This document shows positions 4,847 to 60,600 of a DNA stretch of 64,000 bases, piece after piece. Location of the stretch: the NCBI GenBank assembly GCA_000165345.1, contig CM000431.1:32001-96000 (forward strand), read 5' to 3'. The notes beneath the pieces were generated by a model that worked only from the letters and a program-made list of their open reading frames with translations, had not been told where the DNA came from and searched no databases. The number at the start of each line of letters is the position of its first letter. Position 1 is the stretch's first letter. A program made the translations under genes and the position numbers.

Positions 4847-5072
4847 TGACGAGTAACGTAAATTTGTTATTAGGAGGGGTGATGGATTTAAAGGATACGA
4901 GGGAAAATAGAGAAATACTTTGTTTATTTAAAAAAAAAGACTACTCTTAAGAATTAATGAAGCATTAATGTGTGTGAGAAGTTTTTACTAAAAAGGTATA
5001 GTAGTGGTATTCTTTGATTTAGCTTGGAAAGAGAATCTGCTCTTGAAAAGGCTAAGGCAATAAGGGACTAAC

Positions 5073-8302: not shown

Positions 8303-9075
8303 TTATTTCCTTCCGAGAATTCTTCTGAAAAATACATATATATTTGCTAACAATAGTACAAATATTATGAAATATAGCATCAGTCTCTCAATTACTTTCT
8401 GCTTGTATAATGTACTTGCCAATTTACGACTCTCCATGATATTATAATCTATATTATTCAAACCATATTTGCTTCTTGTCAAGTTATCCCTTTGAACTGT
8501 TAAAGTATTCAAAGAATATAATCCTATATGTTGTGTTTCCTGAGCTAGGTTTGCAGATATTCTTAAATTATCTTCATTCCTTTTCATCAAATCTTCTGTA
8601 GAAACTCCCATATTATATTCTTTTGTCGATGGTTTTAAATAATTCTGACCGTCATTACCACTAATGTTTGTACTCATATCCAACTCTTTATTAGAATAGT
8701 AACTACTAGCCATGCTCTCCTCTCTATATGTGTCAAACTTCCTATATATGTCTTCATATACTCTCTGATATCTTTGATACGATTGGTATTCAATCGAATT
8801 CTTAGATAACGTCATAACCTTAAAAAATAGTTAAACAAACTTAAAAATTGGAAATATAGACATTAAATTTAACTTACTTCATCTTTCAGTTGATCCAAAC
8901 ACTTCTTTGCATCCTGAAATCGACGTTCCAATATAGATATTTCATCCTGTGTAAATTTCTCCCCTCTTCCTCCATCTTCAATATTCACACATTTGAGCAC
9001 TAAACGTTCTATTCCTTGTATAACAGACAAAAACTCCTCTTCATATGACACAAAATACTCGGATGCTGACAACAT
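8303..9075 (-). CDS. Qb-SNARE (Vti1/membrin/Gos1-like), two exons: 9075..8878 and 8818..8303, with a 59-nt intron 8877..8819. Spliced product is 237 aa
   Basis: Track ORF 8869..9075 ends ...LKDE followed by GTAAGT (a canonical donor read through to a stop). The minus strand then shows TTTTTTAAG|GTTATGACG, and the acceptor joins in frame to the 8303..8815 ORF (...LDQLKDE|VMTLSKNSIEYQ...). The product has an N-terminal helical domain (SEYFVSYEEEFLSVIQGIERL, like the Vti1 N-terminus), a SNARE heptad motif (IGLYSLNTLTVQRDNLTRSKYGLNNIDYNIMESRKLASTLYKQKVIERL) and a C-terminal tail anchor (MLYFIIFVLLLANIYVFF). Confidence 0.7.
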
Positions 9076-9834: not shown

Positions 9835-12137
9835 TTAGCATTTTCCATCTTTAGAATCCTTACATTCAAATCCTCCAGGTGTATTTATACAACACTGTGA
9901 TTTACCACAATAATTACCCACTTTACATTCATCTATATCACGGCATGTGAATCCATCTCCTGTATAGCCTTCTGAACATACGCACTCAAATTTACTTAAA
10001 TCATGCGTTGTTTCAAAGATTGAATGTACGTAACATTCCGCATTTTTGGAACATTTGCTACAGACTTCATTCTTAAAGTTTTTCTTGACTTTTTTTGGTA
10101 TCAAAAACATTGGATTATTGAATCTATACTCATCTCTAATCCATTTAGAAATGTGAGATGCTTCATTGCTTAAATCTGATTTATTCATCATAATAGAATG
10201 CATTAAGACGGGTTCTGATGAAATATATTCAATCTCACGATACATATTTGCATCTTTTGATAATGAAATGAAGTATATATCAATATCTTTCTTCAAGCTA
10301 ACGATTCCTGGGCATGTCTTCACAGAAGTACAACCATTAAATCCTGCAGTGATGTATACTATCTTTCTTCTCTTTAATAGCACCTTATTATGATAGCCTC
10401 TTTGATTTGAATGAGAATCAGTACCATTTTGTTGTGCAATAACATTTAATACTCTTTCTGAGTCTTGCTGTGCAACCATACTTAACAATCTATCAACCCT
10501 CATATTATTGTCAGAGCCTTGTAATGTTGATATGAAGCTCGTATGCCCTTGGGTTTTGTTTTGTTCATTAATTGGAACTGACAAAATTTCAGTATTTATT
10601 CCACTCTCGACCAAATTTCTATAAATTACATTTGCAGACAAATTAATTTCTTTCATTTGATCAATATTTGGTACTTTAGACAGATCCATTACTAACGAAA
10701 CTGCATATTTTGGTGGTTCGCTTGTGGTTGTTGTAGTATTTGGATACTCAGTTGTAGTGGTTGTTATATCTGGAATTGTTGTAGTTGTGGTAGTTGTTGG
10801 ATATCCTGTTGTGGATGTGGTTGTTGGATAACCTGTTGTAGAAGTGGTTGTTGGTTGTCCCGTTGTAGAAGTGGTTGTTGGATAACCTGTTGTAGAAGTG
10901 GTTGTTGGATAACCTGTTGTAGAAGTGGTTGTTGGATAACCTGTTGTAGAAGTGGTTGTTGGATATCCTGTTGTAGAAGTAGTTGTTGGATGTTCTGTTG
11001 TAGAAGTGGTTGTTACATTTGGAGCTTTAGTTGTAGTAGTTGTTGGGCTTCCAGTTGTGGTGGCTATTGGACTTCTAGTTGTAGATGTGGTTGTTACATT
11101 TGGAGCTTTAGTTGTAGTAGTTGTTGGGTTTCCAGTTGTAGAAGTGGTTGTTGCATTTGGAGCTTTAGTTGTGGTAGTTGTTGGATTTCCAGTTGTAGAA
11201 GTGGTTGTTGGACTTCTAGTTGTGGATGTGGTAGTGTTTGGACTCCCTGTTGTGGTAGTTGTTGGATATCCTGTTGTGGATGTAGTTGTTACAACTGTAG
11301 TCGTTGTGGTAGTGATTGGAATATTTGGGTATTCTGTTGTTGTGTTGTTGGGAAAGGATAAACTGGATACTCGGTTGTTGTTGTTGTTGGGTATACTGGA
11401 TATTCTGTTGTTGTTGTGGTGGGGTATACTGGATATTCTGTTGTTGTCGTTGTTGGGAAAGGATAAACTGGATACTCTGTTGTTGTTGTGGTTGGGTATA
11501 CTGGATATTCTGTTGTTGTCGTTGTTGGGAAAGGATAAACTGGATACTCTGTTGTTGTTGTGGTTGGGAAAGGATAAACTGGATACTCTGTCGTAGTAGT
11601 TGTTGGAATTGGGTATATTGGATATTCTGTTGTTGTTGTTGTTGGGACTGGGTAAACTGGGTATCCTGTTGTTGTTGATGTCAAATTTAAAATATAGTCA
11701 TATTTGTGGCTATTCCATCCCATTTGGTAAACATTTTTTTGATGATGATTGTAATGATAATGATGGTTTTCCTTTGGTATATAATTAAAATGACTATTAG
11801 TATAAGACCTTTCATCATCGGTTGTATCTATATATTTAGGAGTATATGTATTATAATAAGTGTTATAATATCTATAATTATGGTGGCTTTGATGGTGGTT
11901 GTGTTTATACTTATGACTCTGAGATTCTGCCACCTTTCTATTTAAATTTGACGTACCTTCATCTGTCAAAATTGCATTATTTTCATCATAATCATGTTGA
12001 TTTTCTGGTGAAACCCATGTATCTTGTTCATCAATATCAGAAGCAAAAATAATTGTTAAATTTATCAATAGGAGACCTATTGAGAGAACAAATTTTTTAT
12101 TTAAAACTCCAAACATTAGGAACCGTAAAAAAATCAA
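9835..12137 (-). CDS. Secreted mucin-like glycoprotein. It has a signal peptide, a His/Tyr/Asn-rich segment, a Thr-rich tandem-repeat array and a C-terminal Cys-rich domain with a calcium-binding EGF module. The reading frame is broken once inside the repeat array, near 11345
   Basis: The N-terminus MIFLRFLMFGVLNKKFVLSIGLLLINLTIIFA is a hydrophobic signal. It is followed by HKYKHNHHQSHHNYRYYNTYYNTYTPKY. Next come about 13 copies of TTTTTEYPVYP(FP), then about 15 copies of TTTSTTGYP (27-nt unit). The repeat frame runs without stops into the 9835..10689 ORF (...NTTTTTSEPPKYAVSLVMDLSK...). The C-terminal domain has 16 Cys, including CRDIDECKVGNYC...C.NTPGGFEC, a cbEGF signature. The frame break: the last TEYP unit reads CCAACAACACAACAGAATACCC where sister units read CCAACAACGACAACAACAGAATATCC, a ~4-nt deficit. 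Confidence 0.7.
10700..11690. repeat. Coding tandem repeats (27-nt and 39-nt units of ACN-rich Thr codons) inside the mucin gene
   Basis: On the + strand this is ggatatcctgttgtagaagtggttgtt reiterated, then ggatactc(g/t)gttgttgttg... units. The near-perfect periodicity creates the spurious + strand ORFs 10855..11361, 10952..11596 and 11316..11678. Confidence 0.85.
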
Positions 12138-12186: not shown

Positions 12187-12298
12187 GCATGTAGTTTTTT
12201 TGTTTTTTTAATACCGCAATGCATGTGGATGGCTTTTTTTGTCAATTATAAATAATTACGTGTCAAAAGCTACATGCACATTGCATACATGCAAATGC
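12187..12298. promoter_or_regulatory. Cluster of GCATG-core motifs in the 5' region of the mucin gene (GCATGTAG, AATGCATGTGG, TACATGCACATTGCATACATGCAAATGC)
   Basis: Five or more CATGCA/GCATGT occurrences lie within 110 bp, 50-160 bp upstream of the mucin ATG at 12137 (minus strand). Confidence 0.45.
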
Positions 12299-21765: not shown

Positions 21766-21805
21766 AGGCGGGAACATGCATGCAGAAAAAGTGGCGCATG
21801 CAAAA
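21766..21805. promoter_or_regulatory. Dense motif cluster upstream of the CLU-like gene: AGGCGGGAAC (E2F-like), ACATGCATGCAG, GTGGCGCATGCAAAA
   Basis: Three motifs lie in 40 bp, 130-170 bp upstream of the ATG at 21934. Confidence 0.5.
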
Positions 21806-44357: not shown

Positions 44358-44432
44358 TGCATGACATGCATGCAATGTTGTTTATTGTGGCGGTAATTTC
44401 AGGGTCAAATGTCAGAAGTTTTGGCGGGAAAG
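44358..44432. promoter_or_regulatory. Promoter elements upstream of the helicase gene: TTGCATGACATGCATGCAATG and the classic E2F site TTTTGGCGGGAAA
   Basis: Motifs at 44358-44378 and 44420-44432 lie 460-540 bp upstream of the ATG at 44894. Confidence 0.5.
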
Positions 44433-50450: not shown

Positions 50451-52326
<1,876 letters not shown>

Positions 52327-52826
52327 NNNNNNNNNNNNNNNNNNNNNNNNNNNNNNNNNNNNNNNNNNNNNNNNNNNNNNNNNNNNNNNNNNNNNNNNNN
52401 NNNNNNNNNNNNNNNNNNNNNNNNNNNNNNNNNNNNNNNNNNNNNNNNNNNNNNNNNNNNNNNNNNNNNNNNNNNNNNNNNNNNNNNNNNNNNNNNNNNN
52501 NNNNNNNNNNNNNNNNNNNNNNNNNNNNNNNNNNNNNNNNNNNNNNNNNNNNNNNNNNNNNNNNNNNNNNNNNNNNNNNNNNNNNNNNNNNNNNNNNNNN
52601 NNNNNNNNNNNNNNNNNNNNNNNNNNNNNNNNNNNNNNNNNNNNNNNNNNNNNNNNNNNNNNNNNNNNNNNNNNNNNNNNNNNNNNNNNNNNNNNNNNNN
52701 NNNNNNNNNNNNNNNNNNNNNNNNNNNNNNNNNNNNNNNNNNNNNNNNNNNNNNNNNNNNNNNNNNNNNNNNNNNNNNNNNNNNNNNNNNNNNNNNNNNN
52801 NNNNNNNNNNNNNNNNNNNNNNNNNN
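52327..52826. other. Assembly gap (500 N)
   Basis: An uninterrupted run of n of conventional scaffold-gap length. The true size is unknown. Confidence 0.99.
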
Positions 52827-54267
52827 CAAATGTATGATAGTATTTTTCAAAATATTCTTGTATTATATCATTAATATTATATTCTTGTAATATATTACCA
52901 AATAATTTATTTTTGCTCTGATTTAATATATTTTCCAAAGCAGAAAAATTATAATTCATTATTTTTGATTTAATATTCTCCAAATCAATAAAACTATAAT
53001 TAGAAGTTTGTGTATCATTTACTAATACATTTGTTCTCATATCATACCAACTACAATTTATAGGAAACCATGGTAAAATATTCAAGTTACCTTGTGATTC
53101 AATATAATTTTCTATATAAACTTGTCTCTTAAACCATCTATTTTCGAATATCTTAAAAAACTTTTTAGGAAATATTCTTGTAATGAATTCATATATTTCT
53201 GTATCATATTGAGATAGTATCGAAATTATTTGAGCATATAATATACAATTATCAACATTTGCATGCTCAAGATTATTAATAAATCCCTCATTTATAATTC
53301 TTGCCAAATATATTAATAAAACTCTGCTACTTTTAATCTTATTATTGATTAATTGATATTGACTCTCAGTTGAATCTAATAGTAATGATCTTAAAATAAT
53401 TCCACTCAAAAAGTCAACTTTTGGGATTGATGTTATCGATAGGTCGAACAAAAGATCTAAATAATTTCCACATAAGATTTCAATTGAAACATTTTTTAGT
53501 ACCTTATCTGTCAAATATCTTTGAAAATGTAAGATATTTGAATAAATCTTAAGTATTAAGGTGGTTAATAGTATTGATGAATTCTCATTATATTTTTCTT
53601 GTTTTATAGAAGATGAAATATCAAATACCTTATTTTGATCAAATAATTGTGTAAGATACATATTCTTATGTTGAAATAAAGATTTCCATAATTTGCTAAG
53701 TGCTTTTTCATCATCTTCTTCCGATAAACATCTTCTTAAAGAAATACTTTGAGAAATTTTATCATTACTTTGATTTTTCATTAATTCCAATATTGCTTCT
53801 AAAATTTGACATCTCAATTGAATACCAAGTAAATTAGAACTTGCTATATTTATCATAACTCCAAATATATTTGGAAACTCTCTTGAAAGTAATCCTCTGT
53901 AATAATTACACTTGGAAACTTGAAAAATAAAATTTGATGTAATTGTTAGACACTCCTCTATCTCAAGTCTTAACTCATTCATTAAGAACCTTGGGTCTTC
54001 TTTTTTCATTCTAAATTCTGATATTTCTAGTCTTTTATTTGCAACATTCAAGAACTCATTCACCAATTTAACAGAAAGTAAACTTTTTCTGTTACTGTAA
54101 GTTCCAGAATTTTCTTCTATTTCGTTCATATAATCACTCAAAAAGTTCAATAATACTACATCTTTCATTGAAATTAATACTTCTTTACTCAATTTTCTTC
54201 TATTTTCTGATTCACTCTTTAACTTTCTTATTTTTGAAGCAACCAAACTTAAATTTAACTCTTTCAT
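52827..54267 (-). CDS. Hypothetical protein, N-terminal at least 480 aa; the 3' part is lost in the gap
   Basis: ATG at 54267. The open frame runs to the gap edge at 52827. Helical, Leu/Ile/Asn-rich sequence with no catalytic motif recognised. The track ORF 52318..54267 includes translated Ns. Confidence 0.55.
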
Positions 54268-54405: not shown

Positions 54406-54489
54406 TACATGCAAACTATTTGCAAAAAAATGCATTTTGACCTTTTTTTTCCCGCCCAAGATGGCCACATGCAACTGTGCATGCACAAC
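54406..54489. promoter_or_regulatory. Promoter elements for the 54267 gene: TTACATGCAAAC, E2F-like TTTTCCCGCCCAAG, CCACATGCAAC, TGTGCATGCACAAC
   Basis: Four motifs lie within 85 bp, 140-220 bp upstream of the ATG at 54267 (minus strand). Confidence 0.5.
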
Positions 54490-57198: not shown

Positions 57199-57248
57199 TT
57201 GCATGTAGCAATGATCAATAAATGCATGCAGGGGGACAATTGCATGTG
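57199..57248. promoter_or_regulatory. Promoter elements upstream of the RCC1-repeat gene: TTGCATGTAGC, AATGCATGCAGGGGG, ATTGCATGTGG
   Basis: Three GCATG-core motifs, one followed by a G5 box, lie 370-420 bp upstream of the ATG at 57618. Confidence 0.45.
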
Positions 57249-57617: not shown

Positions 57618-60600
57618 ATGTATGCAACACAGGACCAAAGTCAACTACCAGATGTTCCTGATTTCATTAAGAATGAAGTAAAAAAGAATGCTTTTAAAAA
57701 ACAGGGAGGAGACTCACTGGGAGGTCATTCATTTACAAGAGCAGCTTCAAGCTTGAATCATTATTTTATAGTAGCAAAATTAAAAAACAAAGGCCAGCTT
57801 TATGCTTGGGGTGTAAACACAAATAATGTTTTAGGTTTGGGTATAGAAAATGGAGAATTTAATTTTCCTATGAAAGTGAACTTCTTTTCAGCGTTGGAGG
57901 TATTCCAAGTAAGCTGTGGTTATTCTCACACGGCTGTCCTAGTAAAAGGAATTTCAGAAGCATCAGGAAGAGTATATACTATGGGACTTGGAGATAGAGG
58001 GAGATTAGGATACACCAGAGGCTATACAGAATTTGGAAACGAGCATGATAAGAATGATTTGAATGAGTCTTGGTATACTCCAGTTCCTTGCATTGTAAAT
58101 TTTCCATTCAATGCAAAGATTAGTAGAATTTCTTGTGGAGCAAACCATAGCTTGGCTTTATCAGATTCGGGACTAGTATTTGCATGGGGAATAGGACAGT
58201 ATGGGTGTTTAGGAACTGGAGAACTTAATGATGTATATTCTCCCGTCAAAATTGAGGCTGGGCCAACAGATAAGAAAGTACTACATATAGCAGCAGGAGC
58301 AAGACATTCATTATGTTGTAATGAAGATGGACAAGTTTTTGCTTGGGGAAGCAATTCAAATGGGAGACTTGGTACCGGTGGATCTTATGGAATGAAGACT
58401 GTCCCAACCCAAATAAAGTCTTTGAGTCAATATCACATAACTTTAGTCGCTGCAGGAGAGTCACATAGTGGATGCATTGATAGTTTTGGCTATATATATA
58501 CTTGGGGGAATGGTGGAAGTGGTAAACTTGGTCATGGAACTCAATCTGATTGCAATATTCCAAGAAGAATTGAGGGAATCAGCTCATTACCTTTTGTGCA
58601 GTTAACACTTGGAGCATTTAATTCAATGGCATTATCTCAATCTGGAGAAGTTTATATTTGGGGAGCAAAACAACATGAAATCATATCACTTCCTACTAAG
58701 ATAGATGCTTTTGATTCACACATTTGCCATATTAATTCTGGTCCGTATATTTCCTTTGCCATGGATGTAAGGCATAATATATATCTATGGAATAACAGAC
58801 TACTAGTCAATTCAAAAAAATCTGAAGCATTGAATGCCAGTGAGGAACAATTATATAAGAGAATGAATAGTAAAAACCCCGTATTGCTTCCATTTTTTCA
58901 AAGTAAAGCTTTTGTTGATGATTGCATTTTTTATATGGGATTTAATCTAGTTGATTATAAAGGAAATAAGGTATCTTATGAACCAAAGTCAGAAGGAGGC
59001 TTGTTTTCAGTGAACAGAATATATAAATCAAATGGATCTTCGGAAATTGGATCATTAGTTGGTTCCCAAATTCCTTCATGGTCTGTTAGACAAATTGCTT
59101 GTGGCACATCGCATACTTTGCTATTAGTTTACGGTGGTACCATATTTGCGTGGGGAGATAACAAATACGGACAGCTTGGAGTTGATACAAGAAGGAGAAA
59201 ATCTCAAAACGGTGACAAAAATGAATCTTTCCTGAATGAACCTACTGAAATCAAGTTTTCAGAGCCTATTAGAAGAGTTGCATGTGGATCATGGCATAGT
59301 CTTTGCTGCGATATCAAAGGTAATTGCTTCTCATGGGGAAGAGGTGACAGAGGCCAACTGGGAACTGGAGCTATACGTAATTTGTACGAACCAGCAGGAA
59401 TTGTCACTTTAAAGAATGTTATTGAAGTAGCTGGGGGAGAGCTTTATAGTGCATGCATTGTTGCATGCATTACTACAGGAAATAAGGATCTTGACACGAT
59501 TAACTCAGGTGACCTCTGGATTTGGGGTGATGGAGATCTTGGAAAGTTAGGACTAGGAGATCATGTATTAAAATCGTGTATTGCAGCTCCAAGACATTTA
59601 AATCTGGGCACTCCAATCATAAAGGTAGCTTTAGGATCTTCACACACTTTGGTTTTAACAGCTTCAGGAGAACTAATTACTTGGGGAGCTGGATATTATG
59701 GACGTCTTGGAACCAATAGTACCAAAAGTCATTCAAATCCTATTAAAATCAGGTTTCCAATTAAAGGAGTTCAAATTGTTGATATTGCTGTTGGATCTTA
59801 TCATTCTATGGCAGTTTCATCTCTTGGAGACTTATGGGTTTGGGGTAAGGCAGAAAATGTTCTTTCTGAGAAAGACGTTCTCACACCCTACATTTTTGCT
59901 AAATTAGAATCACCTTCAGGAGTTCCGAGAATATACTCTATTCATGCTTTTGGAGATGTTTCCTATGCAATTACTCAGTCTGGAGTTTTGTGGATTTGGG
60001 GACCCGAAAATTCAGAAACTGAAAATATTCAAGGCTTAGAATCCAGCATTAAGATCAAGTCTCATACAGGTAGGGCTGAAATGATACTACTACCAGGAAA
60101 TGCAATAGGAGTTTCTGGAAGTACAACACACCATGTTTGTTTGTTGGCATCAGGAGAGGTTGTATCTTGGGGAGATCCCTCCAGAGGTAAATTGGGACAG
60201 CAAGATATTAGAAATAAAAAGTATATTGAAGATCCTACACTAGTAATACAAAAGTGGAATGACGCAAAGAATATGTTAGATTCAGTAGGCAAAGGAGATT
60301 CATCTGCTGGACTAGCAACTGATAAGAAGAAGAACTATACAAAGGATGAGGGAGTTACTACAATTGAAGAGCTTGAAGCATTTATGGGAGAGTTAACAAG
60401 TAACTCCGTACATTTTTCAAAGAAAGCAAAATCATTCGAATATGTACAAAGCTTACTGCATAAAGAAGATCCTCGTACTAGAAAGGATTCTATTTCTTTG
60501 CTTGAAGAAGACTTAGTTGTATTGTTTTCCTCTCATATTGAATACTTCAGGAAAATGAAGGAAGAAGAAGAGAGGCTCAGATATTTAATTTTTCTAGCTG

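Follow-up and report, generated by a model that had tools for sequence, protein, structure and literature searches.

Background

The mucin-like glycoproteins gp900, gp40/15 and CpMuc1-7 of Cryptosporidium are zoite-stage proteins implicated in attachment. Here we consider, against this background, cgd3_190, an intron-less single gene of Cryptosporidium parvum chromosome 3 which is already annotated and which lies in a 64,000-nucleotide stretch of the GenBank assembly GCA_000165345.1 (contig CM000431.1, positions 32,001 to 96,000 of the forward strand; hereinafter, the window, whose own numbering is used throughout). Like these mucins, the product of cgd3_190 has a signal peptide, long Thr-rich tracts that are expected acceptors of O-linked N-acetylgalactosamine (O-GalNAc), and repeat-length differences among isolates and species; unlike them, it is specific for the female gamete, carries a vWA-like domain and EGF modules at its C-terminus, is built of repeat units containing Tyr and Pro, and shows no sequence homology to any of them. 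In the window, the gene is interrupted by a shift of the reading frame within the Thr-rich repeats. It appears likely, as the best explanation of the whole, that cgd3_190 encodes a soluble, secreted female-gamete glycoprotein of ~750-780 amino acids (aa) with a role in the oocyst, and that the frameshift is an artefact.

Several other groups of proteins invite comparison. Matrilins, collagen VI and the mussel byssus protein PTMP1 are, like the product of cgd3_190, secreted and combine a vWA fold with adjoining EGF modules, which makes a role in matrix assembly plausible, and the vWA domains of collagen VI and PTMP1 are among the structural matches of the cgd3_190 model. Unlike the matrilin-type adaptors, cgd3_190 encodes neither a coiled-coil nor a collagen region, its metal ion-dependent adhesion site (MIDAS) is degenerate, and an N-terminal mucin stalk and a His-rich head are present; homology with the vWA/EGF matrix adaptors is not detectable at the sequence level, the likeness being one of fold and architecture only. 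With TRAP and MIC2, both of which are found among the fold matches, the protein shares a vWA domain, but not the thrombospondin repeat, the transmembrane helix, the cytoplasmic tail, the complete MIDAS or the stage of expression. Fibrillin and LTBP resemble it in one EGF module and in the D-x-D-E-C motif of the calcium-binding type; unlike them, it has no TB (8-Cys) domain and, with two EGF-type modules only, no cbEGF array. Finally, the COWPs and the Eimeria proteins GAM56/82 have in common with it a signal peptide, comparable female-specific expression, presence in oocysts and a His/Tyr-rich composition. Unlike the COWPs, however, cgd3_190 lacks periodic Cys repeats, its location in the wall being only proposed, and it is set apart from the Tyr-rich proteins of the GAM56/82 type in that dityrosine cross-linking is reported to be absent from Cryptosporidium walls.

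Results

One gene in two reading frames

Outside the repeat, only 0-2 substitutions per 3-7.75 kb separate the flanks of the gene from their counterparts on three C. parvum chromosomes, whereas the divergence from C. hominis-type loci is ~2%, so that the window can be assigned to C. parvum chromosome 3, ~30-50 kb from one end. The gene itself is found between a 237-aa SNARE-like gene and a 402-aa CCCH/WD40 gene; since this order agrees with the tabulated order of cgd3_180 (V-SNARE), cgd3_190 (Fibrillin/EGF-like) and cgd3_200 (CCCH/WD40), the locus is cgd3_190. Exact-match look-ups of the 284-aa and 275-aa open reading frame (ORF) products of the window returned no record. When the C-terminal 295 aa are compared, the tail of the protein shares 99% identity with a protein of C. 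hominis TU502, is 79-87% identical to its counterparts in C. ubiquitum, C. canis and a Logan assembly, and 39% identical to the one of C. serpentis; the same 90% cluster includes the 751-aa C. parvum NCBI protein KAL5369365.1, which is encoded on a 1.1-Mb chromosome.

Two long minus-strand open frames overlap within the Thr-repeat region. Frame 0 runs from the ATG at 12116 to a stop at 11289 and would by itself yield a 275-aa fragment with the head and TEYP units, whereas in frame 2, one base out of register with it, no stop is met between ~11697 and the one at 9835-9837. A preceding description of this DNA (hereinafter, the sequence-only reading) had correctly recognized the offset of the two frames but let the first of them begin at 12137, which is merely a TTG of the bacterial code; the true start is the ATG at 12116 (MFGVL), which is used by every annotated orthologue.

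A single missing base

At the junction of the two frames, the repeat unit reads CCAACAACACAACAACAG where intact C. parvum alleles read CCAACAACAACAACAACAG. The deficit is 1 nucleotide (nt); the ~4 nt given in the sequence-only reading came from a mis-transcribed unit. Which base is missing cannot be assigned within the (AAC)n run, but it is located near 11344. In a base-by-base comparison of the window with six other full-length copies (7 alleles in total; Table 1), the gene is an intact single ORF in five of the other assemblies, and against GCA_048859185.1 the sole frame-breaking difference is this 1 nt. Units 1-6 of the window are identical to those of the other C. parvum alleles, whereas units 7, 8 and 9 each contain a change that is absent from all six (CCCAACC to CCCCACC, ACA to ACC, and the lost A, respectively). 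These three private changes, confined to 78 bp, make up 3 of the 10 differences from GCA_048859185.1, the other 7 being spread over ~22 kb; by our arithmetic, such a background rate predicts ~0.03 differences per 78 bp.

Table 1. Full-length alleles of cgd3_190 compared (handles of the loci in parentheses)
Assembly	Type	Reading frame	Product
Window	C. parvum	1-nt deletion, unit 9	760 aa, repaired
GCA_048859185.1 (L006/L008)	C. parvum	intact	751 aa
GCA_031892065.1 (L010)	C. parvum	intact	781 aa
GCA_015245375.1 (L009)	C. parvum	frameshifted differently	770 aa annotated
GCA_001593465.1 (L007)	C. hominis-type	intact	792 aa
GCA_002223825.1 (L011)	C. hominis-type	intact	831 aa from ATG (annotated 839 aa)
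GCA_001483515.1 (L012)	C. hominis-type	intact	831 aa

The integrity of the gene, which is conserved throughout the genus, extends to a more distant species (GCA_009792415.2), where the syntenic orthologue is intact, encodes 625 aa and shares the head, the Thr-rich region and the tail. Moreover, the 1.5 kb downstream of the shift in the window contain no further lesion and encode a protein identical to that of the intact C. parvum allele. As judged from the ratio of nonsynonymous to synonymous substitution rates (0.07 in comparison with both C. hominis and C. canis, 0.08 with C. ubiquitum), the part of the gene downstream of the frameshift is under strong purifying selection. A protein search with the frameshifted tail gave no candidates, which is a weak negative, the search words being probably of low complexity.

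Nearly all assemblies of the genus are broken or corrupted in this repeat. Contigs end inside it in C. hominis TU502, C. ubiquitum, C. canis, C. serpentis, a Logan assembly and four C. parvum Logan assemblies (L001-L005, L013-L016). The allele L009 equals the 781-aa allele of L010 except that two CCC runs, at gene positions ~797 and ~829, have each lost a single C; since the product annotated for it falls short of the gene span by 31 nt, the annotators evidently bridged the shift, apparently with an artificial gap or intron. The window contains a 500-N scaffold gap at 52327-52826, inside or beside long ORFs at 50451-54267 (minus strand), and thus derives from a gapped assembly. On the broken contigs, the annotated protein begins at an internal Met (MDLSKV), or else the head is given as a 'partial' protein of its own.

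Taken together, the private indel amid clustered private changes, the intact other alleles, the gapped assembly, the contig breaks and the purifying selection argue that the missing base, which is peculiar to this assembly, goes back to an error of the consensus in the repeat; we hold this to be quite probable, in agreement with the sequence-only reading, which had listed an assembly error among its options, and in all probability the frameshift has no biological meaning. A deletion that is genuine in the source isolate would represent a recent strain-specific truncating allele or a nascent pseudogene, with a 275-aa secreted fragment made and the vWA/EGF part left untranslated. Repeat arrays are, indeed, mutation-prone, the base call rests on an assembly consensus, and the window represents a distinct haplotype, with array A like that of L008 and the number of 27-nt units like that of L010, and thus cannot be explained as a mere corruption of any of the compared assemblies. 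Nevertheless, such a deletion is unlikely given that the change is private among the 7 alleles and accompanied by two more private substitutions within 78 bp, that the downstream 1.5 kb is otherwise free of lesions and encodes the protein of the intact allele, that the selection on this part is strong across the genus, that the source assembly is gapped, and that another assembly (L009) is shifted here in a different and clearly technical way. If the deletion were real, this line would make only the head-plus-TEYP fragment and the conserved vWA-like/EGF end would be dispensable for transmission, which we consider about as unlikely. The assembly error named in the sequence-only reading was a repeat collapse; as the cause of the shift, a collapse of two whole units is only half supported: compared to the 12-unit allele, the window is short by 67 nt exactly at the shift, that is, 2 x 33 + 1, but the 66-nt shortfall is common to the intact, independently assembled L008. 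L008, too, has 10 units; the 66 nt may therefore reflect a genuine allele, which leaves the single base alone as demonstrably anomalous.

By far the least credible possibility is a biological bridge over the change of frame, be it a short intron, programmed ribosomal frameshifting or phase variation that results from slippage of the repeat. Formally, 52 GT...AG pairs of the right length class would reopen the frame, and one public annotation, that of L009, bridges its own shift. However, the candidate donors (GTATCC, GTTGTA, GTAACA) are all unlike GTAAGT, and the acceptors inspected follow A/C-rich sequence of the CAACAACAG type, not a T-run, whereas the real 59-nt intron of the neighbouring gene reads GTAAGT...TTTTTTAAG; furthermore, intact alleles of the same species need no intron. 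As for slippage, every repeat period (27, 33 or 39 nt) is, like the AAC tract at the site, a multiple of three, unlike the units of phase-variable contingency loci, and slippage would therefore change the length of the product but not its frame. Thus, neither the intron nor the phase-variable repeat entertained in the sequence-only reading could be upheld.

Signal peptide, head and mucin-type repeats

The domain order of the restored product is signal peptide, His/Tyr/Asn-rich head, repeat family A, repeat family B and a 294-aa non-repetitive tail (Table 2), which is the architecture of a gene for a secreted, mucin-like apicomplexan glycoprotein, as the sequence-only reading had maintained. 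By inspection, the N-terminus (MFGVLNKKFVLSIGLLLINLTIIFA followed by SD) resembles a signal peptide with a basic n-region, a 17-aa hydrophobic core and a small-residue site IFA/SD, and is conserved in the orthologues P0008-P0011. The head, for which Pfam gave no match, is 72% identical in C. ubiquitum and still more His-rich in the distant orthologue P0011. Both repeat families of the sequence-only reading were found, although their counts had to be changed from ~13 to 10 units in the TEYP family and from ~15 to ~20 in the second one, in which 13 units fit TTTSTTxxP and 7 read exactly TTTSTTGYP. Tandem Repeats Finder gave periods of 39, 33 and 72 nt for family A and of 27 nt for family B, in which L008 is shorter than the window by one 27-nt unit. 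The two arrays together span 321 aa and constitute a long, tandemly repeated, Ser/Thr/Pro-rich tract of the mucin type. The protein ends in ...KDSKDGKC with no hydrophobic segment there, and no transmembrane segment, glycosylphosphatidylinositol (GPI)-type C-terminus or cytoplasmic tail was found in the product; owing to the lack of a hydrophobic C-terminal tail, it is soluble and not anchored in the membrane.

Table 2. Features of cgd3_190 and its upstream region in the window
Feature	Coordinates	Strand	Remarks
Whole gene cgd3_190	9835..12116	-	single exon; 760 aa once one base is restored near 11344
Three TGCATG motifs, candidate promoter element	12220..12293	.	100-180 nt upstream of the ATG; putative function
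Signal peptide, aa 1-25, MFGVLNKKFVLSIGLLLINLTIIFA	12042..12116	-	read by eye from the sequence
His/Tyr/Asn-rich head, aa 26-144 (119 aa), HKYKHNHHQSHHNYRYYNTYYNTY...	11685..12041	-	N 13%, Y 13%, H 12%
Repeat family A, 10 units TTTTTEYPVYP(FP), 33 or 39 nt each	11311..11684	-	40% Thr, 21% Pro
Two private substitutions, units 7 and 8	11373..11421	-	A to C at 11421 and 11373, both synonymous
Frameshift site, unit 9	11338..11352	-	38 nt instead of 39; one A lost from the (AAC)n run
Repeat family B, ~20 units of 27-33 nt (TTTSTTGYP, TTTTTKAPNV, similar)	10723..11310	-	56% Thr, 10% Pro
vWA-like (integrin I-domain-like) alpha/beta domain, predicted, degenerate MIDAS	10063..10719	-	
EGF-like module 1, 6 Cys, CSKCSKNAEC...CVCSEGYTGDGFTC	9943..10062	-	Pfam cEGF 27.9 bits, cut-off 26.6
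Atypical EGF module 2 of the calcium-binding type, RDIDECKVGNYCGKSQCCINTPGGFECKDSKDGKC	9838..9942	-	Pfam EGF_CA below cut-off; stop at 9835-9837

On the plus strand, antisense ORFs of 120-214 aa with Cys/Trp-rich or Val-rich products cross the repeats (10855-11361, 10952-11596 and 11316-11678); they exist only because the reverse complements of ACN and CCN codons contain no stops. The annotation of GCA_015245375.1 calls a 227-aa gene antisense to the repeat (L009 8189-8942, minus strand), which is probably spurious.

A vWA-like domain and two EGF modules in the tail

The tail, which contains CRDIDECKVGNYC...NTPGGFEC, had been described in the sequence-only reading as a 284-aa Cys-rich domain. 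Such a description does not hold for most of its length: a globular domain of ~220 aa has only 2 Cys, and 12 are located in the last 75 aa, to which all Pfam matches of the tail, exclusively of the EGF type, are confined. Here we newly assign most of the tail to a predicted vWA-like fold with a degenerate metal site, C-terminal to which two EGF modules are found. In its sequence (VSLVMDLSKV, KIVYITAGFNG, IDIYFISLSKD), the part between the mucin arrays and the EGF modules looks like a degenerate vWA domain; the Pfam search gave no VWA family match at E up to 1. An AlphaFold2 model of the domain, built from five orthologues, is of moderate quality (predicted local distance difference test, pLDDT, 62; predicted TM-score, pTM, 0.60) and shows the expected beta-alpha-beta order, that is, a Rossmann-like alpha/beta fold with vWA topology. 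When this model was compared to the PDB with Foldseek, the top ~40 matches comprised integrin I domains, vWF A1 and A3, the vWA domains of collagen VI, Plasmodium falciparum TRAP and mussel PTMP1, at E-values of 2e-5 to 1e-2 and TM-scores of 0.5-0.59 normalised to domains of ~190 aa; Toxoplasma gondii MIC2 was matched as well. Positions assigned by inspection suggest that the MIDAS signature (DxSxS...T...D) is incomplete: an invariant D-L-S-K-V is found in its first part, and I-T-A-G where T-D-G would be expected.

A profile search of 1.84 billion representative proteins retrieved three Cryptosporidium orthologues only, besides two weak matches to proteins of ~2,200 aa that were discarded as spurious, being repeated alignments to a low-confidence insert; in sequence, the domain is thus restricted to Cryptosporidium. 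A match to FtsZ in a profile search of PDB sequences was likewise rejected; it is non-significant (E = 0.05) and covers only the strand-loop ITAGFNGCTS.

The first EGF module, with its spacing C-x2-C-x5-C-x16-C-x-C-x10-C, has the six Cys of an EGF domain, its scores for the Pfam families EGF_3 and EGF remaining below cut-off. In the second, EGF_CA reaches 18.4 bits (cut-off 27) and covers only positions 1-29 of the 43 positions of the profile; DIDEC, CINT and GGFEC are present, but, by inspection of the spacing, the C4-x-C5 pair is missing and a CC doublet is found. Pfam revealed no TB (8-Cys) domain, no cbEGF array and no TSP1/TSR match in the product, and, in view of the missing TB domain, the name "LTBP/fibrillin" has been transferred from EGF similarity alone.

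Expression in female gametes and presence in oocysts

In the RNA sequencing of sorted cells by Tandel et al. 2019 (PMC6877471, supplementary tables), the expression of cgd3_190, given as log2 counts per million, has a mean of only 0.96 in asexual stages, whereas in females the means are 12.2 (in vitro) and 11.7 (in vivo). In the same source, the values are ~3.7 for sporozoites, ~1.1 for 24 h culture and ~10.9 for 48 h culture, the column order of this sheet being inferred from the sample sheet. The log fold change of females over asexual stages is 11.3 for cgd3_190, as compared to 10.9 for COWP1 and 13.5 for COWP8 (PMC6877471). The transcript is, thus, ~2^11-fold female-gamete-specific and among the most female-specific ones of C. 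parvum. At the protein level, the product of cgd3_190 was quantified, with fairly high intensity, by tandem mass tag (TMT) mass spectrometry of excysted oocyst material (PMC12548878, S7 Table). Tryptic peptides predicted for the part downstream of the frameshift include IVYITAGFNGCTSVK and VLNVIAQQNGTDSHSNQR.

Variation in repeat number

The products of the C. parvum alleles have lengths of 751, 760 (repaired) and 781 aa, those of the C. hominis-type alleles of 792 and 831 aa; the unit-number variants comprise 10 or 12 TEYP units and 3 or 4 GYP units. Differences in repeat number had been anticipated in the sequence-only reading and are borne out by this comparison of assemblies, with lengths of 751-831 aa; in addition, a published survey gives a ~100-bp insertion in 5 of 9 C. 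parvum genomes. The differences are either real or, at the least, recurrent across assemblies. Between L007 and L011/L012, the difference of 39 aa equals three 13-aa units of the TEYP type, which reflects either a real polymorphism or a collapse in one assembly. The multilocus sequence typing marker Chom3T, a T-rich gene fragment of chromosome 3, may correspond to the repeat at 10722-11700; neither primers nor coordinates are given in two papers on it.

Surroundings of the gene

The motif TGCATG, three copies of which precede the gene, occurs 47 times in the window, with 24.5 copies expected, and is clustered in intergenic regions, the other clusters being at 21775-21802, 44358-44374, 54408-54485, 57200-57246 and 59450-59469. 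We take it to resemble the GCATGC-type upstream motif described for Cryptosporidium. Scans of the window for bacterial promoters and terminators gave results at chance level and are irrelevant to eukaryotic DNA.

The downstream neighbour cgd3_180 (SNARE/Sec20-like, 237 aa) occupies 8303-9075 on the minus strand and has a genuine 59-nt intron at 8819-8877; in the TU502 and Logan annotations, it is split into genes of 68-70 aa and 167-170 aa. At 4933-4938, between two genes, the window differs from L006 by an indel of 1 nt within an A/T homopolymer and by a substitution next to it.

Discussion

Female-specific expression and presence in oocysts, two properties expected of an oocyst-wall component, are both recorded for cgd3_190 in published tables. 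Since transcription is female-gamete-specific and the protein is found in oocysts, the evidence points to an oocyst matrix glycoprotein rather than a zoite adhesin. The following sequence of events can be envisaged. The gene would be switched on in macrogamonts, and the real product, reading through the frameshift site, would enter the secretory pathway, where the Thr runs would be glycosylated with O-GalNAc. The glycoprotein could then be stored together with the cargo of the oocyst wall and be deposited within this wall or beneath it. There, the mucin stalk might serve as a hydrated, protease-resistant spacer, whereas the vWA-like/EGF end might make protein-protein contacts, as in vWA/EGF matrix adaptors. 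We put at about even the chances that the protein is, specifically, a glycosylated component of the wall or of the sub-wall layer with a vWA-like/EGF binding module and a mucin spacer. The Tyr richness of the protein was also considered as a substrate for dityrosine cross-linking; this idea was dropped in view of the reported absence of dityrosines from the walls (PMC3760245).

The sequence-only reading had seen in this gene a surface or secreted mucin-like adhesin and, given repeat-number polymorphism, a likely locus of antigenic variation. As an adhesin of zoites, the protein would be found on the surface or in the micronemes of sporozoites or merozoites and be antigenically variable. Mucin arrays, a vWA-like domain and EGF modules are, indeed, typical of apicomplexan adhesins (TRAP/MIC2, gp900), the protein was found in excysted oocyst material, which includes sporozoites, and its length varies between isolates. 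The sole paper found by a whole-word search for cgd3_190 names it a microneme protein on domain grounds alone; it is also the source of the ~100-bp insertion mentioned above. However, the transcript is near background in asexual stages, low in sporozoites and very high in sorted females, and the product has no transmembrane, GPI-like or cytoplasmic tail, no TSR domain and a degenerate MIDAS, so that a zoite adhesin appears improbable, and the assignment to the oocyst is preferred here.

Several points weigh against the interpretation as an oocyst glycoprotein whose gene is artefactually shifted. The excysted oocyst lysate mixes wall, sporozoites and residual body, and the peptides that support the mass-spectrometric identification are not distinguishable. 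The searchable literature yielded no localisation or knockout data for cgd3_190, and the walls of Cryptosporidium oocysts are reported to be without dityrosines (PMC3760245). The structural model is of moderate confidence and rests on 5 sequences. As to the frameshift, it was judged from assembled consensus sequences, and the 10-unit array of the window equals that of the independent intact assembly L008.

Conclusions

The annotation of cgd3_190 and its tabulated expression were already known; the vWA-like assignment, the table of alleles and the warning about corrupted assemblies are modest additions. The warning is that the repeat of 33/39 nt corrupts Cryptosporidium assemblies, as can be judged from the contig breaks, two different C. 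parvum frameshifts, a bridged coding sequence with a 31-nt gap and an antisense gene call; gene models, variant calls and typing at cgd3_190 need long, accurate reads. As to the biology of the parasite, the placement of a vWA-like domain beside EGF modules yields a hypothesis of matrix assembly, within the oocyst wall or beneath it, that can be tested: cgd3_190 may be a previously unrecognised vWA/EGF matrix organiser of the oocyst wall or of the sporozoite tethers.

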